Shown here in pieces: positions 1 through 53,922 of a stretch of 64,000 bases of DNA (the first letter of the stretch is position 1; the number at the start of each line of letters is the position of its first letter). Where the stretch lies: sequence record PQ471460.1; one strand, written 5' to 3'. The DNA comes from Escherichia phage vB_EcoM_JE01. Position numbers and translations under genes: made by a program. The notes under the pieces were generated by a model that saw only the letters and a list, made by a program, of their open reading frames with translations, was not told the DNA's origin and did no database searches.

Positions 1-372
1 TTCTATAAATGGGCTGAAGCACAAAAAGATATTCATTGCGTATTTGTAGATGAAGCTCAGTTTTTAAAAACTGAACAGGTGCATCAATTAAGCCGAATTG
101 TAGATACATACAATGTTCCTGTTATGGCTTATGGTCTAAGGACTGATTTCGCTGGAAAATTATTTGAAGGTTCTAAAGAACTTTTGGCGATTGCAGATAA
201 ACTTATTGAACTAAAAGCAGTTTGTCATTGTGGTAAAAAAGCTATTATGACAGCTCGATTAATGGAAGATGGAACACCAGTTAAAGAAGGTGATCAAATC
301 TGTATTGGTGATGAAATTTATGTTTCTTTGTGTAGAAAACATTGGAATGAATTAACTAAAAAGCTTGGTTAG
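1..372 (+). CDS. tk: thymidine kinase, C-terminal part (5' end lies outside window)
   Basis: Frame is open from base 1; translation ...[35 protein letters not shown]...CHCGKKA... matches recalled T4 Tk C-terminus. Confidence 0.9.
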
Positions 373-933: not shown

Positions 934-1316
934 AATTCAGCGACTTTTCACAAAGTGGAAAACCTTCAAAGGCAGATGAATACTTAGGTTTATTAATGGC
1001 TGCGCAAGCTTATTTTCATTCTGCGCATTTTGAAACTAAAAGTTATGCTAGACACAAAGCATACGATTTTATTTTCTCTGAGTTGCCAGATTTGATTGAC
1101 AAATTTGGTGAGCAGTATTTGGGGTATTCTGGTAGAAAATACACGCCGGCAATTCCGGATGCCAGTAAACTTCCTACTGATACAGTTAAAATGATTGATC
1201 GCATACTAGACCAATCTAACAGCATTTATAAAGAAATGCCTCCAGCCATTCAAAGCACGATAGATGATATTACTGGAATGTTTTACCAGAGTAAGTATCT
1301 TCTTTCCCTCGAATAA
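930..1316 (+). CDS. hypothetical protein (rI.-1 position)
   Basis: 128-aa ORF overlapping rI stop (ATGA). Confidence 0.6.
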
Positions 1317-1320
1317 CATT

Positions 1321-1343
1321 AGTCTCCTTCGGGAGACTTTTTT
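1321..1343 (+). terminator. rho-independent terminator (UUCG hairpin + T-run)
   Basis: agtctcc-ttcg-ggagact followed by TTTTTT. Confidence 0.7.
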
Positions 1344-1353
1344 CATTTTACCG

Positions 1354-1383
1354 GTTTACTTTCCATTTGAGCTGTGATACTAT
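1354..1383 (+). promoter_or_regulatory. T4-type early promoter (GTTTAC -35, 18-nt spacer, TACTAT -10)
   Basis: ccGGTTTACtttcc...gtgaTACTATacaa; same module recurs at 43509. Confidence 0.6.
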
Positions 1384-1411
1384 ACAACCATCGGATAAAG
1401 AGGAGAACATC

Positions 1412-1600
1412 ATGAAAATTGAAGCACTTAATCAAGAAGGAAATATCTACGTCATCATTAATGGTGATTTTTTCGTCGACATGGATGAAGTTACTAGTGA
1501 AGAACTTGTAGAACTTCTTAAGAAACGTTATGATATGTGTGATGAAGCTGCAACTCATATGGCGTGTGCAATATTCTCTCTTTCATATGTGGTGGAATAA
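1412..1600 (+). CDS. hypothetical small protein
   Basis: 62-aa ORF; SD AAGAGGAG before ATG; lies downstream of the early promoter. Confidence 0.45.
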
Positions 1601-1782
1601 TGATTAGTATCGAACAAGCAGATAAAATTAAAGAATTGGTAGCTTTAATTCGCAAAGCAGATGAGGAACGCATTAACTTTGCCTTATCAGGTATTGAAGA
1701 ATTTGAAGCTAAAGTTGATAATGCTTTAGAAGCTTTAGATATGTTTCTTGATGAAATTATCGATCACAATACGAGAGTTTAG
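1600..1782 (+). CDS. hypothetical small protein
   Basis: 60-aa ORF, ATGA overlap with upstream ORF. Confidence 0.45.
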   Translation: MISIEQADKIKELVALIRKADEERINFALSGIEEFEAKVDNALEALDMFLDEIIDHNTRV

Positions 1783-1783
1783 T

Positions 1784-1978
1784 ATGCTAACACGTGAACA
1801 GTTTGAAAAAATCATTAAATTAGCACGTGATATTGAAATAGATTCATATCAATTGGCAGTTGAGCACTGTGAAGGATATTCATACGACGGTATAGAAGCA
1901 GCTAAAAAGGATTTGGATAAATCCAAAGCTAAGTTAGTTCAATATCTTGAAATGATTAGGTGGAATAATGAAAACTGA
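1784..1978 (+). CDS. hypothetical small protein
   Basis: 64-aa ORF in tandem small-gene run. Confidence 0.45.
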   Translation: MLTREQFEKIIKLARDIEIDSYQLAVEHCEGYSYDGIEAAKKDLDKSKAKLVQYLEMIRWNNEN

Positions 1979-2099
1979 AAAGCAGATGTTTTTAATGAAG
2001 CTAATTGAAGAATATGCTAATGCAGTTTCTGACTATGAGTATTCTGCTCGGGAAAGAGGTACAGCTTTCGCAAAGGAAGAAATGAAAAATTATGGTTGA
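1968..2099 (+). CDS. hypothetical small protein (43 aa)
   Basis: Short ORF overlapping upstream stop; below ORF-track cutoff. Confidence 0.3.
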   Translation: MKTEKQMFLMKLIEEYANAVSDYEYSARERGTAFAKEEMKNYG

Positions 2100-2144
2100 T
2101 GCTCACACAAAACTCCAGAATTTTATTGAAACCGTCATTTAATG

Positions 2145-2174
2145 GTTTACAAGTTGGCAAGGTTATGATATAGT
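2145..2174 (+). promoter_or_regulatory. T4-type early promoter with stem-loop
   Basis: GTTTAC ... TATAGT at 18-nt spacing; imperfect inverted repeat agttggcaag/cttgtcaact around the -10. Confidence 0.5.
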
Positions 2175-2873: not shown

Positions 2874-3395
2874 ATGTTTATTTCAAGTGAAAGTGGTTTA
2901 ATTCGTGTTGAATTTAAAAATGACATCTTCCTTATTCAAGGAGATGATATTATTAAAATGAGTTATGATGAAATCAAGAAAATTTGTCATGCTCTTGAAA
3001 GTCATGGAAAGGAAAATGCTACTATTAATATAGGTGATTTATGGGTGACACTTTATGAAGTATCCGAAGGATTTAATATTGAAGATGAAAATAACATTTT
3101 AGCTATTGATAAAAGAAGTGATTTGTTTGATGTATTAAAAGTTTATGAACAATCAAACGGTGGAAGAAAAGCCGTATTGATTTATCAAAAACCGCATTCA
3201 TGTGGAACTGCTTCAATCATTTCAAATATTGAAGATGAAACTGATACCTATATGTGTGTTTTGAAAGCTGGTGGTGACCGTCATCCGGATTTTATTTCTA
3301 TTCGTCAAAACAATGGAGAAATTTCATTATCAAAATCAGAAGCTGAAGCTATGATTAAGTATTTAACAACTGTTACACCTTCAATGAAAGGATAA
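2874..3395 (+). CDS. hypothetical protein, paralog of the previous ORF
   Basis: 173-aa ORF; SD GAGGAAA; shared motifs with 2310-2867. Confidence 0.6.
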   Translation: MFISSESGLIRVEFKNDIFLIQGDDIIKMSYDEIKKICHALESHGKENATINIGDLWVTLYEVSEGFNIEDENNILAIDKRSDLFDVLKVYEQSNGGRKAVLIYQKPHSCGTASIISNIEDETDTYMCVLKAGGDRHPDFISIRQNNGEISLSKSEAEAMIKYLTTVTPSMKG

Positions 3396-24463: not shown

Positions 24464-24650
24464 CATTAACGATGAATTCATAGCAAATATTGATTACACT
24501 GAAGAAGATTCTAGATATGTTGGAATAATTTATATCACATCAAAAGCAGCACAAGGTGCTGTTTGCATGGCTGAATTTGATGAATACTTTTTAGATTATG
24601 ATGATATGATAGAATGGTCTAAAAGATACATTAAAAGGAATCTTTTGTGA
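24435..24650 (+). CDS. hypothetical small protein (start uncertain; GTG at 24444 possible)
   Basis: About 70-aa ORF between genes 47 and 46. Confidence 0.3.
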   Translation: MHTVKFSTFDINDEFIANIDYTEEDSRYVGIIYITSKAAQGAVCMAEFDEYFLDYDDMIEWSKRYIKRNLL

Positions 24651-26335
24651 AGAATTTTAAACTAAACCGAGTTAGGTATCAAAATATAATGTCAGTAGGT
24701 GGAAATCCTATTGACATTCAACTAGATAAGGTTCAAAAAACTCTTATTACTGGACGAAATGGCGGTGGTAAGTCTACTATGTTAGAAGCCATCACATTTG
24801 GGCTTTTTGGCAAGCCATTTCGTGATGTAAAGAAAGGTCAATTAATAAACAGCACAAATAAGAAAGAACTTTTAGTTGAACTGTGGATGGAATATGATGA
24901 GAAAAAGTACTATATCAAAAGAGGGCAAAAACCAAACGTTTTCGAAATCACCGTTAACGGTACACGTCTTAATGAATCTGCCAGCAGTAAAGATTTCCAA
25001 GCAGAATTTGAACAGCTTATCGGAATGTCATACGCCAGTTTCAAACAGATCGTCGTACTCGGCACGGCTGGATATACCCCTTTCATGGGCCTATCCACTC
25101 CTGCAAGAAGAAAACTCGTCGAAGACCTTCTCGAAGTAGGAACATTAGCTGAAATGGATAAGCTTAATAAAGCACTAATACGTGAATTAAATTCACAAAA
25201 CCAAGTGCTTGATGTTAAAAAAGATAGTATTATCCAACAAATTAAAATATATAATGATAACGTTGAACGCCAGAAAAAATTAACTGGTGATAACCTTACT
25301 CGTTTGCAGAATATGTATGATGATTTGGCAAAAGAAGCTAGAACGCTAAAATCGGAAATAGAAGAAGCTAATGAAAGATTAGTTAATATTGTTTTGGATG
25401 AAGACCCGACTGATGCATTTAATAAAATCGGTCAAGAAGCATTTTTAATTAAATCAAAAATTGACTCGTATAATAAAGTCATTAATATGTATCACGAAGG
25501 TGGATTATGTCCAACCTGTTTGTCACAATTAAGTTCCGGTGATAAAGTTGTTTCTAAAATTAAAGATAAAGTTTCTGAATGCACGCATTCGTTTGAACAG
25601 CTTTCAACACATCGTGATAATTTAAAAGTTCTTGTCGATGAATACCGAGATAATATTAAAACCCAACAGTCATTGGCAAATGATATTCGCAATAAAAAGC
25701 AATCTCTAATCACGACGGTAGATAAAGCTAAAAAAGTTAAAGCGGCTATAGAAAAAGCATCATCTGAGTTTATTGACCATGCTGATGAAATAGCACTGCT
25801 TCAAGAAGAACTTGATAAAATTGTTAAGACAAAAACTAATTTAGTAATGGAAAAATACCACAGAGGAATTTTGACTGACATGCTCAAAGATTCTGGTATT
25901 AAAGGTGCTATTATTAAAAAGTACATTCCATTATTTAATAAGCAGATTAACCATTATCTTAAAATAATGGAAGCGGATTATGTGTTTACATTAGATGAAG
26001 AATTTAATGAGACAATTAAATCCCGTGGTCGTGAAGATTTTAGTTATGCTTCATTTAGTCAAGGTGAAAAAGCACGAATTGATATTGCTCTTTTATTTAC
26101 TTGGCGTGATATTGCTGAAAAAGTTTCAGGTGTTAAAATAAGCTGTTTATTTCTTGATGAAGTATATGACGGTGCATTTGATGCTGAAGGTATTAAAAAT
26201 GTAGCTAAAATTTTAGATGGTTTGAAGGATACCAACTTCTTCATAATTTCGCATAAAGACCATGACCCACAAGAATATGGTCAGCATATTCAGATGGAAA
26301 AAGTTGGTAGATTTAGTTTAGCTAAGATTAGCTAG
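24647..26335 (+). CDS. 46: recombination endonuclease subunit gp46 (Rad50/SbcC-like ATPase)
   Basis: 562 aa; Walker A GRNGGGKST, central coiled coil with CPTC zinc hook, Walker B LFLDEV; GTG start. Confidence 0.95.
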   Translation: MKNFKLNRVRYQNIMSVGGNPIDIQLDKVQKTLITGRNGGGKSTMLEAITFGLFGKPFRDVKKGQLINSTNKKELLVELWMEYDEKKYYIKRGQKPNVFEITVNGTRLNESASSKDFQAEFEQLIGMSYASFKQIVVLGTAGYTPFMGLSTPARRKLVEDLLEVGTLAEMDKLNKALIRELNSQNQVLDVKKDSIIQQIKIYNDNVERQKKLTGDNLTRLQNMYDDLAKEARTLKSEIEEANERLVNIVLDEDPTDAFNKIGQEAFLIKSKIDSYNKVINMYHEGGLCPTCLSQLSSGDKVVSKIKDKVSECTHSFEQLSTHRDNLKVLVDEYRDNIKTQQSLANDIRNKKQSLITTVDKAKKVKAAIEKASSEFIDHADEIALLQEELDKIVKTKTNLVMEKYHRGILTDMLKDSGIKGAIIKKYIPLFNKQINHYLKIMEADYVFTLDEEFNETIKSRGREDFSYASFSQGEKARIDIALLFTWRDIAEKVSGVKISCLFLDEVYDGAFDAEGIKNVAKILDGLKDTNFFIISHKDHDPQEYGQHIQMEKVGRFSLAKIS

Positions 26336-27044
26336 GTTTATATTTACAGTTATCATTATGCCATCTTGATAAATTTCCGAAAGTGGTAACTTTACCACAA
26401 TGGACGCAAGTACCAGTCTTTTCAGTTTTCTTGCGTCCATTTGGATTTTTCTTGCAGAAATTTCTATGCGCTGCGATAACGCATTTCTTGCCTATCATTC
26501 CACAGAATTCGCAGGATGTTTCTTCAAGAACGATTGCTTTAAGCCCGTTTGAGATATTATTTCTGTGTTCTTTAGACATTGGTGGTCTAACTTTAGGATT
26601 AGGGTGATTTGGACAGTTATCAAAATGCCAACGATTCATATTCCCGCTTAATCCAGACTTACCGCAATGAGGACAAGTTAGTCTTGCTTTATTAGCTACT
26701 GCATCAGACATTTTCTTTCGTGTCTCCTGGGAGAATTCTTTGTTCTTTTCTATTTCCCAGAGTTTACGACGAATCCAACCGAAAGTTTTATTGTTGCGTT
26801 TAGCGTATTTCGTGGAAACTGTCATCATGTTAGCAGCATAGACTAATTTTGGTTCAGAAGGATAAATTTTTACTAAAAGTTGATGAGCTACATAGTGCTC
26901 TTCTGGCGTTAAATCTACTAAGTTTGAAGCATCATCACTACCGTTTAAACAGCGTGGTATAATGTGATGAGATTCAGTATAGCAATCAAGTTTTCGAGAT
27001 TTAGCATTAGAGATTAACTTTTCATAAATTAGTTTATAATTCAT
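26328..27044 (-). CDS. HNH homing endonuclease (mob-type)
   Basis: 238 aa on minus strand; ...ESHHIIPRCLNGSDDASNLVDLTPEEHYVAHQ... HNH core plus three C-terminal repeats of C-x-H/F-CGK...RWH-x-DNC. Confidence 0.8.
   Translation of the reverse strand: MNYKLIYEKLISNAKSRKLDCYTESHHIIPRCLNGSDDASNLVDLTPEEHYVAHQLLVKIYPSEPKLVYAANMMTVSTKYAKRNNKTFGWIRRKLWEIEKNKEFSQETRKKMSDAVANKARLTCPHCGKSGLSGNMNRWHFDNCPNHPNPKVRPPMSKEHRNNISNGLKAIVLEETSCEFCGMIGKKCVIAAHRNFCKKNPNGRKKTEKTGTCVHCGKVTTFGNLSRWHNDNCKYKPS
26328..27044 (-). mobile_element. free-standing homing endonuclease gene between genes 46 and rpbA
   Basis: Lone minus-strand gene in a + strand operon; HNH family. Confidence 0.6.
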
Positions 27045-27095
27045 AACATATCCTTTTGATACAGCGAGTGATAAACATATTTATACGGAGGAACT

Positions 27096-27287
27096 GTGGC
27101 AGAATATTCAACTGGACAGCATCTATTAACTATTCCTGAAATAAAACGATATATTCTGAGAAATAATTTTTCTAATGAAGAGCATATAGTTACTGAATCT
27201 ATGCTTAAGAATGCATTTAAATCAGAATATACGAAAATAATGTCCAACAGAAATGAAGCTTGGACTGTTACTGATTATTATGACTAA
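27096..27287 (+). CDS. hypothetical small protein
   Basis: 63-aa ORF; GTG start 7 nt after GGAGGA. Confidence 0.45.
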   Translation: MAEYSTGQHLLTIPEIKRYILRNNFSNEEHIVTESMLKNAFKSEYTKIMSNRNEAWTVTDYYD

Positions 27288-27296
27288 AGGTGTATT

Positions 27297-27686
27297 ATGA
27301 CTAAAATTACTGTGAATTATACTGTTGATGTAAAAGATATTCAGCCAAAACACGTGCGTTCTGAATCAAATCCACAAAACCAAAATAAAATTCGTCGAGC
27401 ATGGGTTTTGTCTCTTTCTGATAACGCAATGGAAGTTATTCAGAACAAAATTAAATCTGCACCTGCTCGTCATGCGTATTATGAAGCCATCGATCGTGAA
27501 GTGAGTGATAAATGGATTGAACTGATGCGCAAACATACAGCAGAATCTCTAAATGCTGGTGCCAAATTTATTATGACTTCATGTGGTGAGCGCCTTGAAG
27601 ATGATTATTGCGGTAATGCAGATGAACGTCTAATTGTTGCTGCTCAAATTGTTGCTGAAACAATTGCTGCTGATTTTAATCGTTAA
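27297..27686 (+). CDS. rpbA: RNA polymerase-binding protein RpbA
   Basis: 129 aa at the rpbA position before gene 45; length matches T4 RpbA. Confidence 0.7.
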
Positions 27687-30452: not shown

Positions 30453-33149
30453 ATGAAAGAATTTTATATCTCTATCGAAACAGTCGGAAATAATATTGTT
30501 GAACGTTATATTGATGAAAATGGAAAGGAACGTACTCGTGAAGTAGAATATCTTCCGACTATGTTTAGGCATTGTAAGGAAGAGTCAAAATACAAAGACA
30601 TTTATGGTAAAAATTGTGCTCCTCAAAAATTTCCATCAATGAAAGATGCCCGAGACTGGATGAAACGAATGGAAGACATCGGTCTCGAAGCTCTCGGTAT
30701 GAACGATTTTAAACTCGCTTATATCAGTGATACATATGGTTCAGAAATTGTTTATGACCGAAAATTTGTTCGTGTAGCTAACTGTGACATTGAGGTTACT
30801 GGTGATAAATTTCCTGACCCAATGAAAGCAGAATATGAAATTGATGCTATCACTCATTATGATTCAATTGACGACCGTTTTTACGTCTTTGATTTGTTGA
30901 ATTCAATGTACGGTTCAGTATCAAAATGGGATGCAAAGTTAGCTGCTAAGCTTGACTGTGAAGGTGGTGATGAAGTTCCTCAGGAAATTCTTGACCGAGT
31001 AATTTATATGCCATTTGATAATGAGCGTGATATGCTCATGGAATATATTAATCTCTGGGAACAGAAACGACCTGCTATTTTTACTGGTTGGAATATTGAG
31101 GGATTTGACGTTCCGTATATCATGAATCGTGTTAAAATGGTTCTCGGCGAACGCAGTATGAAACGCTTCTCTCCAATCGGTCGAGTAAAATCTAAACTAA
31201 TTCAAAATATGTACGGTAGCAAAGAAATTTATTCTATTGATGGCGTATCTATTCTTGATTATTTAGATTTGTACAAAAAATTCGCATTTACTAATTTGCC
31301 ATCATTCTCTTTGGAATCAGTTGCTCAACATGAAACCAAAAAAGGTAAATTACCATATGATGGTCCTATTAATAAACTTCGTGAGACTAATCATCAACGA
31401 TACATTAGTTATAACATTATTGACGTAGAATCAGTTCAAGCAATTGATAAAATTCGCGGGTTTATTGATCTAGTTTTAAGTATGTCTTATTACGCTAAAA
31501 TGCCTTTTTCTGGTGTAATGAGTCCTATTAAAACTTGGGATGCTATTATTTTTAACTCATTGAAAGGTGAACATAAGGTTATTCCTCAACAAGGTTCGCA
31601 CGTTAAACAAAGTTTTCCAGGTGCATTTGTATTTGAACCTAAAGCGATTGCTCGTCGATACATTATGAGTTTTGACTTGACGTCTCTGTATCCGAGTATT
31701 ATTCGTCAGGTTAACATTAGTCCTGAAACTATTCGTGGTCAGTTTAAAGTTCATCCAATTCATGAATATATCGCAGGAACCGCTCCTAAGCCAAGTGATG
31801 AGTACTCTTGTTCCCCGAATGGATGGATGTACGATAAGCATCAAGAAGGTATCATTCCAAAGGAAATCGCTAAAGTATTTTTCCAGCGTAAAGATTGGAA
31901 AAAGAAAATGTTCGCTGAAGAAATGAATGCCGAAGCTATTAAAAAGATTATTATGAAAGGCGCAGGGTCTTGCTCAACTAAACCAGAAGTTGAACGATAT
32001 GTTAAGTTTAATGATGATTTCTTAAACGAATTATCGAATTACACTGAATCTGTTCTTAATAGTCTGATCGAAGAATGTGAAAAAGCAGCTACACTTGCTA
32101 ACACAAATCAGCTGAACCGTAAAATTCTTATTAACAGTCTTTATGGTGCTCTTGGTAACATTCATTTCCGCTATTATGATTTGCGAAATGCTACTGCTAT
32201 CACAATTTTTGGTCAAGTTGGTATTCAGTGGATTGCTCGTAAAATTAATGAATACCTGAATAAGGTGTGTGGAACTGATGGTGAAGATTTCATCGCAGCA
32301 GGTGATACTGATTCGGTATATGTCTGCGTAGATAAAGTTATTGAAAAAGTAGGTCTTGACCGCTTTAAAGAACAAAATGATTTAGTTGAATTCATGAATC
32401 AGTTCGGTAAGAAAAAGATGGAACCTATGATTGATGCTGCATATCGTGAGTTATGTGATTATATGAATAACCGCGAGCATCTGATGCATATGGACCGTGA
32501 AGCTATTTCTTGCCCTCCACTTGGTTCAAAGGGTGTCGGTGGATTTTGGAAAGCGAAAAAACGTTATGCTCTGAACGTTTATGATATGGAAGATAAGCGA
32601 TTTGCTGAACCGCATCTAAAAATCATGGGTATGGAAACTCAGCAGAGTTCAACACCAAAAGCAGTACAAGAAGCTCTCGAAGAAAGTATTCGTCGTATTC
32701 TTCAGGAAGGCGAAGAGTCTGTCCAAGAATACTACAAGAACTTTGAGAAAGAATATCGTCAACTTGATTATAAAGTTATTGCTGAAGTAAAAACCGCGAA
32801 CGATATAGCGAAATATGATGATAAAGGTTGGCCAGGGTTTAAATGCCCGTTCCATATTCGTGGTGTACTAACTTATCGTCGAGCTGTTAGTGGTTTAGGT
32901 GTAGCTCCAATTTTGGATGGAAATAAGGTAATGGTTCTTCCATTACGTGAGGGAAATCCATTTGGTGACAAGTGTATTGCTTGGCCGTCGGGCACAGAAC
33001 TTCCAAAAGAAATTCGTTCTGATGTACTGTCTTGGATTGACTACTCAACTTTGTTCCAAAAATCGTTTGTTAAACCGCTTGCGGGCATGTGTGAATCGGC
33101 AGGTATGGACTATGAGGAAAAAGCTTCGTTAGACTTCCTGTTTGGCTGA
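30453..33149 (+). CDS. 43: DNA polymerase gp43 (family B, proofreading)
   Basis: 898 aa; exonuclease and polymerase motifs (DIE, YGDTDS, KINSLYG-like). Confidence 0.97.
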   Translation: MKEFYISIETVGNNIVERYIDENGKERTREVEYLPTMFRHCKEESKYKDIYGKNCAPQKFPSMKDARDWMKRMEDIGLEALGMNDFKLAYISDTYGSEIVYDRKFVRVANCDIEVTGDKFPDPMKAEYEIDAITHYDSIDDRFYVFDLLNSMYGSVSKWDAKLAAKLDCEGGDEVPQEILDRVIYMPFDNERDMLMEYINLWEQKRPAIFTGWNIEGFDVPYIMNRVKMVLGERSMKRFSPIGRVKSKLIQNMYGSKEIYSIDGVSILDYLDLYKKFAFTNLPSFSLESVAQHETKKGKLPYDGPINKLRETNHQRYISYNIIDVESVQAIDKIRGFIDLVLSMSYYAKMPFSGVMSPIKTWDAIIFNSLKGEHKVIPQQGSHVKQSFPGAFVFEPKAIARRYIMSFDLTSLYPSIIRQVNISPETIRGQFKVHPIHEYIAGTAPKPSDEYSCSPNGWMYDKHQEGIIPKEIAKVFFQRKDWKKKMFAEEMNAEAIKKIIMKGAGSCSTKPEVERYVKFNDDFLNELSNYTESVLNSLIEECEKAATLANTNQLNRKILINSLYGALGNIHFRYYDLRNATAITIFGQVGIQWIARKINEYLNKVCGTDGEDFIAAGDTDSVYVCVDKVIEKVGLDRFKEQNDLVEFMNQFGKKKMEPMIDAAYRELCDYMNNREHLMHMDREAISCPPLGSKGVGGFWKAKKRYALNVYDMEDKRFAEPHLKIMGMETQQSSTPKAVQEALEESIRRILQEGEESVQEYYKNFEKEYRQLDYKVIAEVKTANDIAKYDDKGWPGFKCPFHIRGVLTYRRAVSGLGVAPILDGNKVMVLPLREGNPFGDKCIAWPSGTELPKEIRSDVLSWIDYSTLFQKSFVKPLAGMCESAGMDYEEKASLDFLFG

Positions 33150-33162
33150 TAGAATAAATCTA

Positions 33163-33184
33163 GGGACCTCCGGGTCCCTTTTTC
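33163..33184 (+). terminator. rho-independent terminator
   Basis: gggacc-tccg-ggtccc TTTTTC. Confidence 0.7.
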
Positions 33185-33267
33185 ATACAAGTAATATAAA
33201 TCTATACTTAGGAAAAATAGATGATTCTGGACCTCTGGAATTCATTAAAAAATTTTTCACAAAACTG

Positions 33268-33297
33268 TTTACATCCCAGTTCCTTTGTGGTACTATA
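33268..33297 (+). promoter_or_regulatory. T4-type early promoter
   Basis: GTTTAC, 18 nt, TGGTACTAT; conserved leader CAACTATCAACT. Confidence 0.6.
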
Positions 33298-33330
33298 CAA
33301 CTATCAACTGATGCGGATTTGGAGAATGAA

Positions 33331-33711
33331 ATGAAAATCGCTATTTTGGTTATTGCATTGGGTCTTACTGGTTGTGTAGCTCAAGGACCAGTAGTAAATC
33401 AGTCTGATGTAGGAAAAATTGTAAACTGTTCAAGCAAATTTTATAATCCTAACGTCAAGTGTTATAAAGAGGCTCCAAAACAGACAGTAGAACAAATGCA
33501 GGCGAATTTTGACGAAGCTATTCGTCCAGATGAATCTGCACAAGCATATCGTAATTCAGATGTGATTACGCGTGAAGAAAAAATTGAAAACTACTGTGCT
33601 GAACTTTGGGCAAATTGGGCTAATAATTACCAATGGCGTACTGGTAAAAATGCTCCGATGGAGTATGTAGTAAATTCTTATAATTCATGTGTAAAAAATT
33701 TGACTAAGTGA
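33331..33711 (+). CDS. predicted lipoprotein (imm.1 position)
   Basis: 126 aa; signal peptide with lipobox LTGC. Confidence 0.6.
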   Translation: MKIAILVIALGLTGCVAQGPVVNQSDVGKIVNCSSKFYNPNVKCYKEAPKQTVEQMQANFDEAIRPDESAQAYRNSDVITREEKIENYCAELWANWANNYQWRTGKNAPMEYVVNSYNSCVKNLTK

Positions 33712-33718
33712 GGAAAAC

Positions 33719-33970
33719 ATGGAAACTTTAGTAGCAGGTTCAATTTTTATGGTTTTAGTTTCAGGCGTGTTGGCTATTATTATATACATGCTTCCGTGGT
33801 TCATCGCCTTGATGCGTGGGTCAAAATCGACAGTAGGAATCTTTTTCACGTCTTTACTGTTTAACTGGTCAATTATTGGTTGGTTTATTACCTTTATTTG
33901 GTCAATTGCGGGTGAAACTAAAAAATCTGTACAGCAAAATCAAGTAATTATCATCAGAGAGAAGGAATGA
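33719..33970 (+). CDS. imm: superinfection immunity protein Imm (membrane)
   Basis: 83 aa; METLVAGSIFMVLVSGVLAIIIYMLPWFIALMRGSKSTVGIFFTSLLFNWSIIGWFITFIWSIAGE... matches recalled T4 Imm. Confidence 0.85.
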   Translation: METLVAGSIFMVLVSGVLAIIIYMLPWFIALMRGSKSTVGIFFTSLLFNWSIIGWFITFIWSIAGETKKSVQQNQVIIIREKE

Positions 33971-34116
33971 AAAGCAAAATTTTAGCAGTATTGCTTTTAA
34001 TCTTGATGATTATAATAAGTATATACTATAGCGTAACAGTTCCTTGTATGATTCCAACGCTTATTATAGGGTGGAGTTTATTACTGTTACAAGTTAAATA
34101 TGAATGCATCAATTGA
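33967..34116 (+). CDS. small hydrophobic peptide (49 aa)
   Basis: ATGA overlap with imm; below ORF-track cutoff. Confidence 0.35.
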   Translation: MKSKILAVLLLILMIIISIYYSVTVPCMIPTLIIGWSLLLLQVKYECIN

Positions 34117-34123
34117 GGTTTAA

Positions 34124-34864
34124 ATGATTAACGATTATATGACAGTTGAAGAAATCCGTCTTGATTTGGGTCTTGCATTAAAGGAAAAAGATTTCGTAAT
34201 TGATAAAACCGGTGTTAAAACTATTGAAATTATTGGTGCATCATTTGTAGCAGATGAACCTTTTATTTTTGGCGCTCTTAATGATGAATACATTCAGCGT
34301 GAACTTGAATGGTATAAGTCTCAAAGTTTGTTTGTTAAAGATATTCCAGGTGAAACACCAAAGATTTGGCAGCAGGTAGCATCTTCTAAAGGCGAAATTA
34401 ACTCGAATTATGGTTGGGCCATCTGGTCAGAAGATAACTATGCCCAGTATGATATGTGTTTAGCTGAACTTGGTCAAAATCCTGATTCTCGACGCGGTAT
34501 CATGATTTATACTCGTCCATCCATGCAGTTTGACTACAATAAAGATGGTATGTCAGATTTCATGTGTACGAATACAGTACAGTATCTGATTCGTGATAAG
34601 AAAGTCAATGCAGTAGTAAGCATGCGTTCAAATGACGTGGTCTTCGGATTCCGTAATGATTATGCATGGCAAAAATACGTACTAGATAAATTAGTATCTG
34701 ATTTGAATGCAGGTGATTCAACTCGTCAGTATAAAGCAGGTTCTATTATATGGAATGTCGGAAGTCTTCATGTGTATTCCCGTCATTTTTATTTGGTTGA
34801 CCATTGGTGGAAAACTGGCGAAACTCATATTGCGAAAAAAGATTATAACGGTGAGTGGAAATGA
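34124..34864 (+). CDS. 42: dCMP hydroxymethylase gp42
   Basis: 246 aa; thymidylate-synthase-like fold; MINDYMTVEEIRLDLGLALKEKDFVIDKTGVKTIEIIGASF... Confidence 0.95.
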   Translation: MINDYMTVEEIRLDLGLALKEKDFVIDKTGVKTIEIIGASFVADEPFIFGALNDEYIQRELEWYKSQSLFVKDIPGETPKIWQQVASSKGEINSNYGWAIWSEDNYAQYDMCLAELGQNPDSRRGIMIYTRPSMQFDYNKDGMSDFMCTNTVQYLIRDKKVNAVVSMRSNDVVFGFRNDYAWQKYVLDKLVSDLNAGDSTRQYKAGSIIWNVGSLHVYSRHFYLVDHWWKTGETHIAKKDYNGEWK

Positions 34865-35703
34865 TTCAATTCGTAATTCCAAGTTATCAACGCGTAGGGG
34901 CAGTTTCTGCCCTTAATATGTTTCCATCTGATTATGAACCTCATATTGTAGTACGTAAACACGAAGAAAAAGCTTATTATGATGCTTATGGGTCTAGAGC
35001 TAAAATTATAACTATTCCTGATGATGTTAATGGAATTGCTGGTACTCGTAAAGCAATTACTGATATGTATGCAGGCCAACGAATCTGGATGATTGATGAT
35101 GATACTACTATTCGTATGAGTTCAATGCGAAAGAAAGATGATCGTCGTTGCGTAGATAAAATTAATCAATTAACTCGTGAACAGTTCTATGAATTGATTC
35201 AATACGTTGAAGATGCCATGGATTGTGGGTATTATCACGGTCATGCTCGTCTACCTATTTTTAAAATTACTTCATCTTGGGGTAATTATCGTGAAAATTC
35301 ATATGGATTCACGAATACCTGGTATGACCTTGGAAAACTTACAACAGAACAAATTGGGTATGGAAAAATTGATTTATGCGAAGATATGTATGCATTTCTC
35401 AATTTAATTAATCAAGGTTATCCGCATTTGGCCTTGTTCAAATATCTGGTTGTATCTGGAAAAGCACAAGCTCCTGGCGGATGTAGTTCAATTCGTAGTA
35501 ATTCAAAACATAATAGAGCGCTTGAGCAAATCAATAGAGAGTTTCCAGAGCAAGCTCGTTGGAAAACTTCTAATATTGAAAAACGAAAATCATTAGGTGA
35601 AGAAGACGAGCCATTAAAGGTTCTTCGCATGTGTGTTTCGCGCAAAGAAAAATCAGAAGCATTTCATAAGTTTAATGCTATTCATCCAATAGCAGTTGAT
35701 TAA
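34861..35703 (+). CDS. putative DNA glycosyltransferase with DxD motif (occupies the beta-gt position; not T4 beta-gt)
   Basis: 280 aa; IWMIDDDTTIR DxD motif; between 42 and uvsX; unlike the recalled 351-aa T4 beta-gt. Confidence 0.65.
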   Translation: MIQFVIPSYQRVGAVSALNMFPSDYEPHIVVRKHEEKAYYDAYGSRAKIITIPDDVNGIAGTRKAITDMYAGQRIWMIDDDTTIRMSSMRKKDDRRCVDKINQLTREQFYELIQYVEDAMDCGYYHGHARLPIFKITSSWGNYRENSYGFTNTWYDLGKLTTEQIGYGKIDLCEDMYAFLNLINQGYPHLALFKYLVVSGKAQAPGGCSSIRSNSKHNRALEQINREFPEQARWKTSNIEKRKSLGEEDEPLKVLRMCVSRKEKSEAFHKFNAIHPIAVD

Positions 35704-40684: not shown

Positions 40685-41713
40685 ATGTCATCAATACCTT
40701 GGATTGATAATGAGTTTGCATACCGTGCATTAGCTCATTTACCTAAATTCACACAAGTAAATAATAGTTCAACTTTTAAATTACGGTTTAGATGCCCTGT
40801 TTGTGGAGATTCAAAAACCGACCAAAATAAAGCCCGTGGATGGTATTATGGCGATAATAATGAAGGAAATATTCATTGTTATAACTGTAACTATCATGCA
40901 CCAATCGGAATATATTTAAAGGAGTTTGAACCTGATTTATATCGTGAGTATATCTTTGAAATAAGAAAAGAAAAAGGTAAAAGTCGTCCAGTAGAAAAAC
41001 CTAAAGAACTTCCTAAACAACCCGAGAAGAAAATAATTAAATCTCTTCCGTCATGCATTAGATTAGATAAACTGGCGGAAGACCATCCAATTATAAAATA
41101 CGTAAAAGCTCGTTGTATTCCAAAGGATAAATGGAAATATCTTTGGTTTACAACTGAATGGCCTAAATTAGTTAATAGTATAGCACCAGGAACATATAAA
41201 AAGGAAATACCTGAGCCTCGTCTTGTTATTCCAATTTATAATGCTAATGGAAAAGCTGAGTCTTTTCAAGGACGTGCATTAAAGAAAGATGCTCCCCAAA
41301 AATATATCACCATCAAAGCTTATCCTGAGGCAACAAAAATTTATGGTGTTGAACGAGTTAAAGATGGTGATGTATATGTTCTAGAAGGACCTATAGATTC
41401 ACTTTTTATTGAAAATGGTATAGCTATTACGGGTGGTCAATTAGACCTAGAAATTGTTCCATTTAAAGATAGACGTGTATGGGTTTTAGATAATGAACCT
41501 CGTCACCCTGACACTATTAAACGAATGACTAAATTAGTTGATGCAGGAGAAAGGGTTATGTTTTGGGATAAATCTCCCTGGAAATCAAAAGATGTCAATG
41601 ATATGATTAGAAAGGAAGGTGCAACCCCTGAACAAATTATGGAATATATGAAAAATAATATTGCCCAAGGGCTGATGGCTAAAATGCGGCTATCTAAATA
41701 TGCTAAGATTTAA
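40685..41713 (+). CDS. 61: DNA primase gp61
   Basis: 342 aa; N-terminal zinc ribbon CPVCGDS...CYNC; TOPRIM-like C-terminus. Confidence 0.95.
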   Translation: MSSIPWIDNEFAYRALAHLPKFTQVNNSSTFKLRFRCPVCGDSKTDQNKARGWYYGDNNEGNIHCYNCNYHAPIGIYLKEFEPDLYREYIFEIRKEKGKSRPVEKPKELPKQPEKKIIKSLPSCIRLDKLAEDHPIIKYVKARCIPKDKWKYLWFTTEWPKLVNSIAPGTYKKEIPEPRLVIPIYNANGKAESFQGRALKKDAPQKYITIKAYPEATKIYGVERVKDGDVYVLEGPIDSLFIENGIAITGGQLDLEIVPFKDRRVWVLDNEPRHPDTIKRMTKLVDAGERVMFWDKSPWKSKDVNDMIRKEGATPEQIMEYMKNNIAQGLMAKMRLSKYAKI

Positions 41714-41910
41714 ATTAACCCAACCAAAGCAAATGCTAAATCTACGAATGTATCAAGAGTAATTACTGGAATACTAACGCCATGAGCAATAGCAACTGGC
41801 GATAAAACAAAATTCCAAAGTAAAATTCCTATCATAGCAGAAATAGTAAAAGCTATACGTTTTTTATTACCTTTGATGGCATTAACAAGTGCCATTAATT
41901 TTTGTACCAT
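41710..41910 (-). CDS. small membrane protein on opposite strand
   Basis: 66 aa with two hydrophobic helices; strong SD AAGGAGGA 4 nt before ATG on minus strand. Confidence 0.4.
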   Translation of the reverse strand: MVQKLMALVNAIKGNKKRIAFTISAMIGILLWNFVLSPVAIAHGVSIPVITLDTFVDLAFALVGLI

Positions 41911-41980: not shown

Positions 41981-42631
41981 GTGAATTACCAAAAAATTTA
42001 CTCGGCTTTAATTACAAAAGCTAAATGCCGGCATCTTGGTGGATATAAAGAACGCCATCATATAATTCCTAGATGTATGGGAGGAGCAGATGACAAAAAC
42101 AATCTTGTTGAGTTAACTGCGCGTGAGCATTTTATAGCTCATAGATTATTAACCAAAATATATCCAGATGTGAGAGGATTGCATTATGCTGTAAATTTAA
42201 TGCGATATAATAAAGGTGTTAAATTAACAAGTAGATTAATAGAAACCCTTAAAATTCAAAACTCTGTTCTTTTCTCGGGTGAAAATAATCCTAGATATGG
42301 CAAGCCGTCATGGATTAAAGGCAAAAAGACCCCAGAAGAAACTAAAGCCAAAATGCGTCTAGCTCATAAAGGTAAAATTATATCCGATGAAGCCAAGGCT
42401 AATATGAGTAAAGCCCGAAAAGGAAGATTTAGCGGTAAAAATTCACCTCGATATTGTTTACCGAATCCAAGACGTGGTGAGATATGGAATTCGTATGATT
42501 CGCTTTACGAGTTGTGGGTTTATAATAATAGACCTAAGCGCACAAAATTTAATAAAATAGCTGTCAAGGCAGGTTATCCTAATATCTGCTATAGACATAT
42601 GATAGAAAACTTCATAAGAAAGGAAAAATAA
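41981..42631 (+). CDS. HNH homing endonuclease (mob-type)
   Basis: 216 aa; N-terminus ...ERHHIIPRCMGGADDKNNLVELTAREHFIAHRLL... paralogous to 26328-27044; GTG start. Confidence 0.75.
   Translation: MNYQKIYSALITKAKCRHLGGYKERHHIIPRCMGGADDKNNLVELTAREHFIAHRLLTKIYPDVRGLHYAVNLMRYNKGVKLTSRLIETLKIQNSVLFSGENNPRYGKPSWIKGKKTPEETKAKMRLAHKGKIISDEAKANMSKARKGRFSGKNSPRYCLPNPRRGEIWNSYDSLYELWVYNNRPKRTKFNKIAVKAGYPNICYRHMIENFIRKEK
41981..42631 (+). mobile_element. free-standing homing endonuclease gene between genes 61 and 56
   Basis: HNH family; inserted in an intergenic position. Confidence 0.55.
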
Positions 42632-43184: not shown

Positions 43185-43192
43185 TATAAATA
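43185..43192 (+). promoter_or_regulatory. late promoter (TATAAATA) for soc
   Basis: Exact TATAAATA about 30 nt upstream of soc ATG; soc is a late capsid gene. Confidence 0.6.
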
Positions 43193-43222: not shown

Positions 43223-43468
43223 ATGGCTAGTACTCGCGGTTATGTTAATATCAAAACATTTGAGCAGAAATTAGATGGAAATAAGAAAATTGAAGGAAAG
43301 GAAATTTCAGTAGCTTTCCCTCTTTATTCTGACGTTCACAAAATTTCTGGCGCTCATTACCAGACATTCCCTTCAGAAAAAGCAGCATATACTACTGTAT
43401 ATGAAGAAAATCAACGTGATGCATGGATTGCTGCAAACGAAGATTTGTGGAAAGTAACTGGTGAATAA
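43223..43468 (+). CDS. soc: small outer capsid protein Soc
   Basis: 81 aa; MASTRGYVNIKTFEQKLDGNKKIEGKEISVAFPLYSDVHKISGAHYQTFPSEKAAY... matches recalled T4 Soc. Confidence 0.9.
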   Translation: MASTRGYVNIKTFEQKLDGNKKIEGKEISVAFPLYSDVHKISGAHYQTFPSEKAAYTTVYEENQRDAWIAANEDLWKVTGE

Positions 43469-45666: not shown

Positions 45667-46290
45667 ATGATTATTAATCTTGCAGATGTTGAACAGTTAT
45701 CTATAAAAGCTGAAAGCGTTGATTTTCAACATGATATGTATAAAAAGGTCTGTGAAAAATTTACTGACTTTGAACAATCAGTTCTTTGGCAATGTATGGA
45801 AGCCAAAAAGAATGAAGCTCTTCATCGGCAGTTGAATAAAATCATTAAAAAGCATTTAACTGAATCACCTTATCAGTTATATCGTGGTATATCAAAATCG
45901 ACAAAAGAACTCATTAAAGATTTACAAGTCGGAGAAGTGTTTTCAACGAACAGAGTAGATTCATTTACTACTAGTTTGCACACAGCGTGTTCTTTTTCTT
46001 ATGCTGAATATTTCACTGAAATAATATTTCGCTTAAAAACTGATAAAGCTTTTAATTATTCTGACCATATCAGCGATATTATACTTTCTTCTCCTAATAC
46101 TGAGTTTAAGTATACATATGAAGATACTGATGGATTAGATTCAGAACGTACTGATAACTTAATGATGATTGTACGTGAACAAGAATGGATGATTCCAATT
46201 GGAAAGTATAAAATAACTTCTATTTCAAAAGAAAAATTACACGATTCATTTGGAACATTTAAAGTGTATGATATTGAGGTAGTTGAATGA
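45667..46290 (+). CDS. modB: ADP-ribosyltransferase ModB
   Basis: 207 aa from ATG after GGAGG; R-S-E motif (YRG ... STN ... EQEWMIP). Confidence 0.7.
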   Translation: MIINLADVEQLSIKAESVDFQHDMYKKVCEKFTDFEQSVLWQCMEAKKNEALHRQLNKIIKKHLTESPYQLYRGISKSTKELIKDLQVGEVFSTNRVDSFTTSLHTACSFSYAEYFTEIIFRLKTDKAFNYSDHISDIILSSPNTEFKYTYEDTDGLDSERTDNLMMIVREQEWMIPIGKYKITSISKEKLHDSFGTFKVYDIEVVE

Positions 46291-46889
46291 AATATTCAGC
46301 AATGCAATTAAAAGATTTTAAAATCAAATCAATGGATGCATCGGTGCGTGCTTCTATTCGTGAAGAATTACTTTCTGAAGGATTTAATTTATCTGAAATT
46401 GAACTTTTAATTCATTGTATTACTAATAAGCCAGACGACCACTCTTGGTTAAATGAAATAATCAAATCTCGTTTGGTTCCAAACGATAAACCTCTTTGGA
46501 GAGGTGTTCCAGTTGAGACTAAGCAAGTGTTAAATCAAGGAATTGATATTATTACATTTGATAAAGTAGTATCAGCTTCATATGATAAAAATATAGCTCT
46601 ACATTTTGCTTCTGGATTAGAATACAATACACAAGTTATTTTTGAATTCAAAGCTCCTATGGTATTTAATTTTCAGGAGTATGCTATAAAAGCTCTACGT
46701 TGTAAAGAATATAGTCCAAGTTTTAAGTTTCCAGATAGCCATCGCTATCGTAATATGGAATTAGTTTCAGATGAACAAGAAGTAATGATACCAGCTGGAA
46801 GTGTATTTAGAATTGCGGATAGATACGAGTATAAAAAGTATTCAACATACACTATCTATACTCTTGACTTTGAAGGATTTAATCTATAA
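46287..46889 (+). CDS. modA: ADP-ribosyltransferase ModA
   Basis: 200 aa; MKYSAMQLKDFKIKSMDASVRASIREELLSEGFNLSEIELLIHC...; R-S-E motif (WRG ... SAS ... EQEVMIP). Confidence 0.75.
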   Translation: MKYSAMQLKDFKIKSMDASVRASIREELLSEGFNLSEIELLIHCITNKPDDHSWLNEIIKSRLVPNDKPLWRGVPVETKQVLNQGIDIITFDKVVSASYDKNIALHFASGLEYNTQVIFEFKAPMVFNFQEYAIKALRCKEYSPSFKFPDSHRYRNMELVSDEQEVMIPAGSVFRIADRYEYKKYSTYTIYTLDFEGFNL

Positions 46890-53216: not shown

Positions 53217-53588
53217 ATGTTTAAAATCGGTAAGAAATATCGTGTTCGCGAAGGTGAAGAAAAGAAATATCTACTTTCTTCTATTTATAGGAATGGTTCT
53301 ATTAATGCCGTAATATCTACAAGCGAATTTATCGTTGAAGATATGAAAGGCCATAATGTTACAATGATTAGTACAGCATCTGGAAATGATGGAAAAATTC
53401 TTCACAGTTTTCAGAGTAATGTTCTAATTTATGATGAAGAATTTGACTTCTTCGAAGAAGTTCCTGAAGATTTTGATTTTGAATGCACTATCACTATGAA
53501 ATCTGGCGACCCTCTTTCTTTTACAGTTAAAGATGAAAGAAGTCGCTTGAGAATTATTAGTCTCCTTCAAGCCATTAAATTTGAGTGA
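53217..53588 (+). CDS. hypothetical protein
   Basis: 123-aa ORF. Confidence 0.55.
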   Translation: MFKIGKKYRVREGEEKKYLLSSIYRNGSINAVISTSEFIVEDMKGHNVTMISTASGNDGKILHSFQSNVLIYDEEFDFFEEVPEDFDFECTITMKSGDPLSFTVKDERSRLRIISLLQAIKFE

Positions 53589-53592
53589 AATT

Positions 53593-53853
53593 ATGAAATA
53601 TGTTAATCGTTCTATCGCGGCATTAGTATTAGCAGTATCTTTAGTAGGATGTACTGATGCTGATAATGCAACCAAAGTTTTGTCTTCAAGTGGTTTTACT
53701 AATATTGAAATCACTGGATATAATTGGTTCGGTTGCTCTGAAAATGATTTCCAACACACTGGATTTCGTGCTATTGGACCTACCGGGCAGAAAGTAGAAG
53801 GAACAGTATGTTCTGGTCTATTCTTCAAGGATTCGACTATCCGTTTTAAATAA
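53593..53853 (+). CDS. predicted lipoprotein
   Basis: 86 aa; signal peptide with lipobox LVGC. Confidence 0.55.
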   Translation: MKYVNRSIAALVLAVSLVGCTDADNATKVLSSSGFTNIEITGYNWFGCSENDFQHTGFRAIGPTGQKVEGTVCSGLFFKDSTIRFK

Positions 53854-53854
53854 A

Positions 53855-53868
53855 AGGCCTTCGGGCCT
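53855..53868 (+). terminator. UUCG-tetraloop hairpin
   Basis: aggcc-ttcg-ggcct followed by TTAGCTTTA. Confidence 0.5.
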
Positions 53869-53870
53869 TT

Positions 53871-53895
53871 AGCTTTATGATTACCGGAGTATAAT
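53871..53895 (+). promoter_or_regulatory. candidate middle promoter for gene 39
   Basis: AGCTTTA MotA-like box, 12 nt, TATAAT. Confidence 0.5.
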
Positions 53896-53922
53896 ATTCC
53901 CGAAACCAAACGAGGATAAGTG

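Follow-up and report, generated by a model that had tools for sequence, protein, structure and literature searches.

In the DNA of Escherichia phage vB_EcoM_JE01 (sequence record PQ471460.1), a long open reading frame (ORF) on the minus strand stands between the plus-strand genes 46 and 45.2. What does this ORF encode, is it mobile, and does it serve the phage that carries it? These questions were addressed for a 64-kb stretch of this DNA (64,000 nucleotides, hereafter the window) by comparison with related phages and known enzymes. Judged from these comparisons, the ORF is very probably a free-standing homing endonuclease gene (HEG) of the T-even 'Mob' family in a Tequatrovirus genome.

Gene neighbourhood and expression signals

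As read from its sequence, the window belongs to a Tequatrovirus, a T4-like phage, and covers its early/middle replication-recombination genes. The ORF list, annotated T4 and near-identical records all gave the plus-strand order 47, 46.2, 46.1, 46, 45.2, rpbA, 45, 44 and 62. The HEG is the sole opposite-strand gene of this early/middle cluster, being the single long minus-strand ORF between 46 and 45.2, and it is also the longest minus-strand ORF of the whole window (Table 1). It starts with ATG and stops with TAA (26330-26328), and its end overlaps that of gene 46 tail to tail by 8 nt (26328-26335), in agreement with the overlap reported for this minus-strand ORF in a first-pass annotation of the sequence. 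The same annotation had placed the ORF between 46 and rpbA, which needs correction: the adjoining gene is 45.2, and rpbA lies one gene further.

Table 1. Coordinates of the HEG, its predicted parts and the neighbouring features in the window.
Feature	Position	Strand	Remark
Putative homing endonuclease ORF (Mob-type HNH and three zinc fingers)	26328..27044	-	238 aa, PHROG 655
Predicted HNH (beta-beta-alpha-metal) core, residues 24-54	26883..26975	-	Invariant residues and AF2
Predicted zinc finger 1, CX2CX12HX3C, residues 124-144	26613..26675	-	Motif scan; predicted beta-beta-alpha
Predicted zinc finger 2, CX2CX11HX3C, residues 178-197	26454..26513	-	Aligns with RB3 I-TevIII ZF I
Predicted zinc finger 3, CX2CX12HX3C, residues 213-233	26346..26408	-	Aligns with I-TevIII ZF II
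Shine-Dalgarno-like AAGGA	27051..27055	-	6 nt before HEG ATG
T4 late-promoter consensus TATAAATA	27078..27085	-	33 nt upstream of HEG ATG
Minimal cassette distinguishing HEG+ from HEG-	26288..27101	.	6 HEG+ versus 11 HEG- alignments
Divergent gene 46 3'-end allele travelling with the HEG	26117..26287	+	Also in HEG-less KMB22
Gene 46 (Rad50/SbcC-like recombination nuclease subunit)	24647..26335	+	Stop TAG 26333-26335
Gene 45.2	27096..27287	+	PHROG 1045
rpbA	27297-27686	+	After 45.2
Other supported minus-strand gene of the window	41710..41910	-	66 aa, PHROG 2024
Second HNH gene of the window	41981-42631	+	Between primase gene 61 and dCTPase gene 56, PHROG 655

Both a T4 late-promoter consensus, TATAAATA, and a Shine-Dalgarno-like motif were found upstream of the HEG. 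There were 4 copies of the promoter octamer in the window versus 10.4 expected by chance. The orthologues of Mosigvirus and Klebsiella phage Roth67 are likewise preceded by the octamer, accompanied by a conserved GTTTATCA...GTATCA stretch, and the Slopekvirus phT4A orthologue has TTAAATA at the octamer position. Because the gene has its own late promoter and ribosome-binding site, we infer that the HEG is expressed late. No terminator was predicted 3' of the HEG at the convergent 46/HEG junction, so that late transcripts may run antisense into gene 46. The hairpin at this junction was weak in the window (z -1.2 and -0.5); at the junction of the Mosigvirus orthologue a strong hairpin was observed (-18.6 kcal/mol, z -6.1).

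Two further regulatory features were considered. An I-TevI-style operator, that is, a HEG promoter/5'UTR resembling the empty site, was rejected since its score equalled the shuffle mean. In HEG-less phages, a MotA-box-like middle promoter (TGCTTTA-N11-TATAAT) lies in the 55-bp spacer between 46 and 45.2. The window cassette has none, and no sigma-70-like replacement promoter adjoining 45.2 was found in it.

Nuclease domain, zinc fingers and known relatives

The 238-aa protein matched PHROG 655 'homing endonuclease' with an E of 8.6e-69. T4 MobE could be aligned with it over the full length (35% identity, E 3e-34), and T4 MobD was 53% identical to residues 1-70, in keeping with the Mob group (MobA-E), whose members have the N-terminal HNH domain in common and differ in the C-terminal DNA-binding part. 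The sequence of the HNH core is ESHHIIPRCLNGSDDASNLVDLTPEEHYVAH. In an alignment of 21 homologues, H26, H27, N41, H50 and H54 were invariant, and these residues correspond to the catalytic H26, H27, N39 and H48 of I-TevIII (PMC1865063). The AF2 model, with a mean pLDDT of 84.9 for the whole protein, placed strands at residues 24-27 and 42-45 and a helix at 47-60 in the nuclease, all with pLDDT >90. An HNH core had been proposed in the first-pass annotation, and the five conserved residues and the PHROG 655 match bear it out. The Pfam HNH model PF01844 was matched below threshold (16.9 bits versus a gathering cut-off of 21.4, E 0.0072), the Mob-type HNH domain being a divergent subtype. A PDB sequence search with the HEG protein gave no significant match.

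The three predicted fingers have the sequences CPHCGKSGLSGNMNRWHFDNC (residues 124-144), CEFCGMIGKKCVIAAHRNFC (178-197) and CVHCGKVTTFGNLSRWHNDNC (213-233). The pattern C..C.{10,13}H...C occurred five times in the six frames of the window, and three of the five occurrences are in the HEG. The ligands of finger 1 were nearly invariant in the 21-sequence alignment, which includes the HEG, and those of finger 3 (C213, C216, H229 and C233) were invariant. Fingers 2 and 3 aligned with residues 207-266 of RB3 I-TevIII (37% identity over 65 aa, E 7e-8), the spacer of finger 2 having 11 residues, one below the I-TevIII range (CX2CX12-13HX3C). Finger 3 also aligned with the one finger that T4 MobE has at its C-terminus. 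It was reported that the I-TevIII motifs hold approximately one zinc each, and that the enzyme needs them for binding and cleavage of its homing site (PMC1865063). The earlier wording 'zinc-finger-like' is thus justified for fingers 2 and 3 by their homology to fingers shown to bind zinc (PMC1865063). As for the claim of three repeats of the form 'CGK...RWH-x-DNC', all four ligands are present in each repeat; the formula itself fits the first and third repeats but fails for the middle one.

In the AF2 model each of the three fingers adopts a beta-beta-alpha fold, and a NUMOD3-like helix precedes fingers 1 and 2. These two helices (SQETRKKMSDA and SKEHRNNISNG) only resemble NUMOD3, with PF07460 scoring 12.6 bits, below the gathering cut-off of 20.4. 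Searches of Pfam and NCBIfam for a name for the finger yielded only sub-threshold zinc-ribbon matches. Going by the alignments, the finger module is already known from I-TevIII and MobE, and the HEG has three copies of it.

The HEG protein and T4 MobE share membership of PHROG 655, the N-terminal nuclease domain (MNY..IY...HHIIPR..GG.D..NL..LT..EH..AH), a NUMOD3-like linker and a C-terminal CPHCGK...RWH.D.C finger. Both genes are free-standing, lie between two conserved genes and are patchy among T-even phages. The insertion sites are different (nrdA/nrdB for mobE, 46/45.2 for the HEG). Moreover, mobE is promoterless and co-oriented with its neighbours (PMC2790892), whereas the HEG lies on the opposite strand and has its own late promoter; and MobE has one finger and several NUMOD3 repeats, compared with three fingers and few NUMOD3 repeats in the HEG. 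The HNH region of MobE was reported to be needed for strand-specific nicking of nrdB in vivo and for high-frequency inheritance (PMC2790892). RB3 I-TevIII has the same layout as the HEG protein, with an N-terminal HNH domain, a long linker and C-terminal tandem fingers. In contrast to the HEG, it is encoded in the nrdB intron, carries only two fingers, acts as a dimer that cuts both strands (PMC1865063) and belongs to a different HNH subtype, with no significant match to the HEG outside the fingers.

Within the window, the gene at 41981-42631 had been called a paralog of the HEG. This holds for the nuclease half, with 36% identity over the N-terminal 174 aa (E 4e-30), but not for the C-terminal half, which has NUMOD3 repeats and no zinc fingers; this gene is also co-oriented with its neighbours. 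RB32ORF054w and its copies in RB51, RB68, slur07, teqhad and others are the same gene at the same locus (98.7-100% protein identity), and nothing of substance differs between them and the HEG. GenBank annotations of the gene, all by prediction, date back to RB32 and read 'homing endonuclease' or 'similar to mobB', and many further records have identical or near-identical ORFs under the name 'homing endonuclease'. A literature search found no paper on this 46/45.2 HEG protein.

Distribution, cassette limits and candidate target

The full element was found in 59 of the 660 phage records sharing its flanks, and when the element was removed from the query, 501 records matched end to end. The HEG is therefore far from being present at the same site in all relatives. 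In Tequatrovirus, approximately 1 in 9 genomes has it (∼59 among ∼500 records), and it is missing from ∼88%. RB32, RB51, RB68, slur07, teqhad and others are carriers; T4, T2, T6, slur11, phage 132 and KMB22 are HEG-less and have the 55-bp spacer between 46 and 45.2 instead. All nine IMG/VR loci retrieved via RpbA were HEG-less. The 46/45.2 site is also occupied in Mosigvirus 348Ecol098PP, Slopekvirus phT4A and Klebsiella phage Roth67: each has an orthologue (42-65% identity) that runs antisense, as the HEG does, and overlaps gene 46 at its end; that of Roth67 is split into two ORFs. In Mosigvirus, the HEG was found in 15 of ∼187 records and was missing from ∼92%, and the 46/45.2 site of RB69 is empty. 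Homologues with at most 38% identity occupy other sites, e.g. nrdA/nrdB, the neck genes and gene 2.

Each of the six natural Tequatrovirus alleles examined had the ORF intact and at equal length. Among these alleles, 39 synonymous and 5 nonsynonymous segregating sites were counted, over 142 and 560 sites, respectively, giving an omega of ∼0.03 (binomial p = 3e-22). This ratio implies that the protein has been maintained. The purifying selection exceeds what a purely selfish gene needs, and it could point to a host-beneficial role. Ac3, considered as a diverged natural allele that would speak for HEG movement between very different gene 46 backgrounds and for extreme purifying selection, was rejected as a blockwise synonymous recoding of RB51: 369 and 141 codons differ between the two in discrete blocks, with 0 amino-acid changes. 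Since such recoding cannot be natural divergence, Ac3 was left out of all counts.

The comparison with HEG-less T-even genomes suggested in the first-pass annotation was carried out by aligning the junctions of 6 HEG+ with those of 11 HEG- Tequatrovirus loci, and it defined both a minimal cassette (26288-27101) and the empty site, the 55-bp spacer. In HEG+ genomes the cassette stands in place of the 55-bp intergenic region, the 45.2 start codon and, on the other side, the final ∼13 codons of gene 46. Strictly HEG-linked sites were found at 26288, 26297, 26299, 26309, 26316 and 27101, and colinearity of HEG+ and HEG- sequences resumes at 27101. As a result, the tail of gp46 reads RFSLAKIS in carriers versus RFTVMV in non-carriers including T4, and 45.2 starts with GTG-GCA (M-A-E-Y) in HEG+ versus ATG-GAA (M-E-Y) in HEG- phages. 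The Mosigvirus cassette likewise adds an Ala codon after the start of 45.2.

The 187 bp to the left of the cassette (26101-26287) were 77-81% identical between carriers and non-carriers and at least 96% identical among carriers. Further out on both sides, the best identities between carriers and non-carriers were 98-99%, and flank similarity beyond ∼200 bp was independent of HEG status. KMB22 has the carrier-type gene 46 allele and no HEG, with a switch to the non-carrier junction at 26285-26288. From the boundary alignments and flank identities, the mobile unit is estimated as ∼0.8-1.0 kb (26117/26288 to 27101), comprising the ∼0.8-kb cassette and usually ∼200 bp of divergent gene 46 allele, and its presence shows no linkage to other parts of the genome. 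Homing with co-conversion would be expected to leave such a pattern.

The possibility that the 55-bp spacer is a remnant of the 5' end of the HEG was also considered. The T4 spacer matched HEG codons 2-13 at 26 of 35 positions, and 11 of 2000 shuffles did as well; the RB69/Mosigvirus pair failed, with 347 of 2000 shuffles as good, and the idea was not supported.

Non-carriers of both genera share a stretch just upstream of the junction, CAT CTT CAA ATG A.. AAA GTT GG. CGA TTT ACT GTA ATG. Within gene 46, codon 548 was CTT or CTC in 14 of 15 non-carriers, and ATT, TTG or TTA in all carriers from four lineages. In Mosigvirus the change at this codon is synonymous and needs two substitutions. The exception is the HEG-less Mosigvirus 172859UKE1, which has the 'carrier' codon TTG. 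The candidate positions for target and immunity were obtained by correlation only, over 17 Tequatrovirus and 6 Mosigvirus loci. With MobE as a model (PMC2790892), the correlation suggests that recognition or cutting may involve the stretch around codon 548. The target is predicted to lie around gene 46 codons 546-558 and the start of 45.2.

Proposed homing cycle and alternative readings

The sequence data are best read as a Mob-type HNH homing endonuclease gene that works or did so until recently, with HEG-less 46/45.2 junctions as its predicted targets. The interpretation as an HNH homing endonuclease, made from the letters alone in the first-pass annotation, has gained support from the family match, the intact catalytic residues, the patchy presence and the unlinked flanks. 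In the proposed cycle, the late promoter TATAAATA and the ribosome-binding site would bring about HEG expression late, when many genome copies are present. The N-terminal ∼75 residues form a predicted HNH (His-Me finger) nuclease, and the two NUMOD3-like helices and three CCHC beta-beta-alpha fingers an extended DNA-binding tail. Expression and protein layout are backed by sequence evidence, and the action and self-protection that follow are inferred. During a mixed infection, the protein would bind and nick or cut the HEG-less 46/45.2 junction, and phage recombination would repair the break from the HEG+ genome, so that the ∼0.8-kb cassette, often with ∼200 bp of the gene 46 allele, would be copied. 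The junction of the carrier may be protected by the changed last ∼13 codons of gene 46, including codon 548, and by the extra Ala codon of 45.2.

Could the gene be a relic, its product once a homing endonuclease but now unable to cut, and be kept only through linkage to its essential neighbours? T4 carries defunct endonuclease genes, e.g. I-TevIII, which is truncated in the nrdB intron (PMC1865063, PMC2790892), the activity of MobE could not be shown in vitro (PMC2790892), and the Pfam HNH match was below threshold. However, the ORF is intact at one length in 6 of 6 natural Tequatrovirus alleles, none of the catalytic or zinc-ligand residues has been lost, neither the promoter nor the ribosome-binding site is damaged, and the excess of synonymous over nonsynonymous sites (39:5) rejects neutral decay. 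A relic was thus considered highly improbable. The same strong selection (omega ∼0.03) can be read in favour of a domesticated nuclease, which would have lost homing and been kept for a benefit to the phage, such as excluding co-infecting relatives by cutting gene 46, regulating as a late DNA-binding protein, or providing a source of antisense RNA to gene 46. Four lineages whose proteins are only 42-65% identical have kept the site, orientation and late promoter, no terminator is predicted to stop late transcripts that converge on gene 46, and there are precedents in marker exclusion by homing endonucleases and in I-TevI autorepression (PMC2988022). Against domestication, the absence of the HEG from ∼88% of Tequatrovirus and ∼92% of Mosigvirus records implies that phages can do without it, the copy in Roth67 is disrupted, and the promoter/5'UTR showed no operator-like similarity to the empty site. 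Exclusion and homing are not mutually exclusive. Domestication seemed quite unlikely.

A broader proposal, also unlikely, is that the endonucleases of the 46/45.2 junction are orthologues of old descent, kept by strong purifying selection in at least four Tevenvirinae lineages, and that they are perhaps not just selfish genes but late weapons or regulators connected with gp46/47, the Mre11/Rad50-like nuclease. If so, the gene 46 alleles of competitors would be excluded, or gene 46 would be damped late by convergent antisense transcription. Under the same proposal, the three-finger array may be a compact, programmable reader of glucosyl-hydroxymethylcytosine DNA.

Returning to the Mob-type homing endonuclease, the HEG is an ordinary selfish gene of T4-like phages that is already annotated in public records. 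Its significance beyond bookkeeping is small, as these records already name it as a predicted homing endonuclease. Nevertheless, the cassette and its empty site provide a clean natural allele pair for a homing assay. The fingers show that the zinc-finger module characterised in I-TevIII recurs among Mob-type enzymes in one, two or three copies. By rewriting the C-terminus of the Rad50-like gp46 and the start of 45.2, the HEG also illustrates, on a small scale, the way in which essential neighbours are reshaped by such genes.

Endonuclease genes at gene 46 and at the 61/56 junction

In some Tequatrovirus genomes, 46.1 is separated from gene 46 by another homing endonuclease gene or pseudogene, which lies directly upstream of the latter; in these phages gene 46 has endonuclease genes on both flanks. 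The second HNH gene of the window is flanked by the primase gene 61 and the dCTPase gene 56, in the same orientation as both, and its product carries NUMOD3 repeats in place of zinc fingers. At this position T4 has different small genes.

The first-pass annotation had counted two convincing minus-strand genes in the window. Besides the homing endonuclease gene between 46 and 45.2 (the HEG), the other real one was probably the 66-aa ORF, which encodes a hydrophobic product and shares 4 nt with the end of gene 61. The 186-aa minus-strand ORF, for which a PHROG search gave no match, is probably spurious.

Features in the window and in other phage records (L-numbers are fetched loci, with coordinates within them)
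Feature	Record	Coordinates	Strand	Remark
66-aa ORF	window	41710-41910	-	PHROG 2024 (unknown function), E 2e-30
Second Mob-type HNH homing endonuclease gene	window	41981-42631	+	PHROG 655, E 3e-59
Octamer TATAAATA, one of four in window	window	43185-43192	+	30 nt upstream of 81-aa ORF
81-aa ORF	window	43223-43468	+	
186-aa ORF	window	53424-53984	-	
46.1/46 endonuclease gene or pseudogene	RB51 (L026)	1294-2158		also Aplg8, G28 and N2 records
46.1/46 endonuclease gene or pseudogene	T2 (L017)	1-194		
Hairpin	Mosigvirus 348Ecol098PP (L022)	3190-3250		-18.6 kcal/mol, z -6.1
46/45.2 spacer	RB69 (L027)	2116-2169		
Ac3/RB51 divergent blocks	record coordinates	about 31966-35230; within 45900-46399; within 54400-54899		

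Two unusual records

Comparison of Enterobacteria phage Ac3 (OK040907.1; L018, L033) with RB51 (FJ839693.1; L026, L034) revealed identity for many kb outside discrete blocks, within which the divergence was ∼25% with zero indels. All codon changes in these blocks were synonymous, without a single amino-acid change; 369 codons were altered in gene 46 and 141 in the HEG, and the GC content was raised from 33-36% to 47-48%. A frameshifted pseudogene was likewise recoded, frame by frame, and the recoded version was found in no other phage record. The blocks look artificial (back-translated or codon-optimised sequence, or part of an engineered phage) rather than naturally diverged.

The 142-kb record PV654520.1 ('Pseudomonas phage vB_PSGBLB0006', labelled as a Pseudomonas aeruginosa phage; L024) has a typical Tequatrovirus 47-46-HEG-45.2-rpbA-45 region, and its HEG protein shows 100% identity to that of the window. 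Its host label or assembly may be wrong.

Hairpins and putative transcription signals

Gene 46 and the HEG converge, and in 348Ecol098PP the stop codons of the two lie within a strong hairpin; the corresponding hairpin in the window is weak.

The 81-aa ORF downstream of one octamer copy is putatively soc, the small outer capsid protein gene known from T4. If this is true, copies of the octamer in the window do correspond to genuine late promoters.

In HEG-less phages of both genera (T4, L003; RB69), the 54-55-bp 46/45.2 spacer contains a MotA-box-like middle promoter, laid out as TGCTTTA or CGCTTTA, 11-12 nt and TATAAT. This promoter is removed by the ∼0.8-kb Tequatrovirus HEG cassette; in the Mosigvirus cassette TGCTTTA-N11-TATAAT is retained, adjoining its late promoter, with the -10 element overlapping the 45.2 start codon. 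Transcription of 45.2, rpbA and 45 may therefore differ in phages carrying the HEG.
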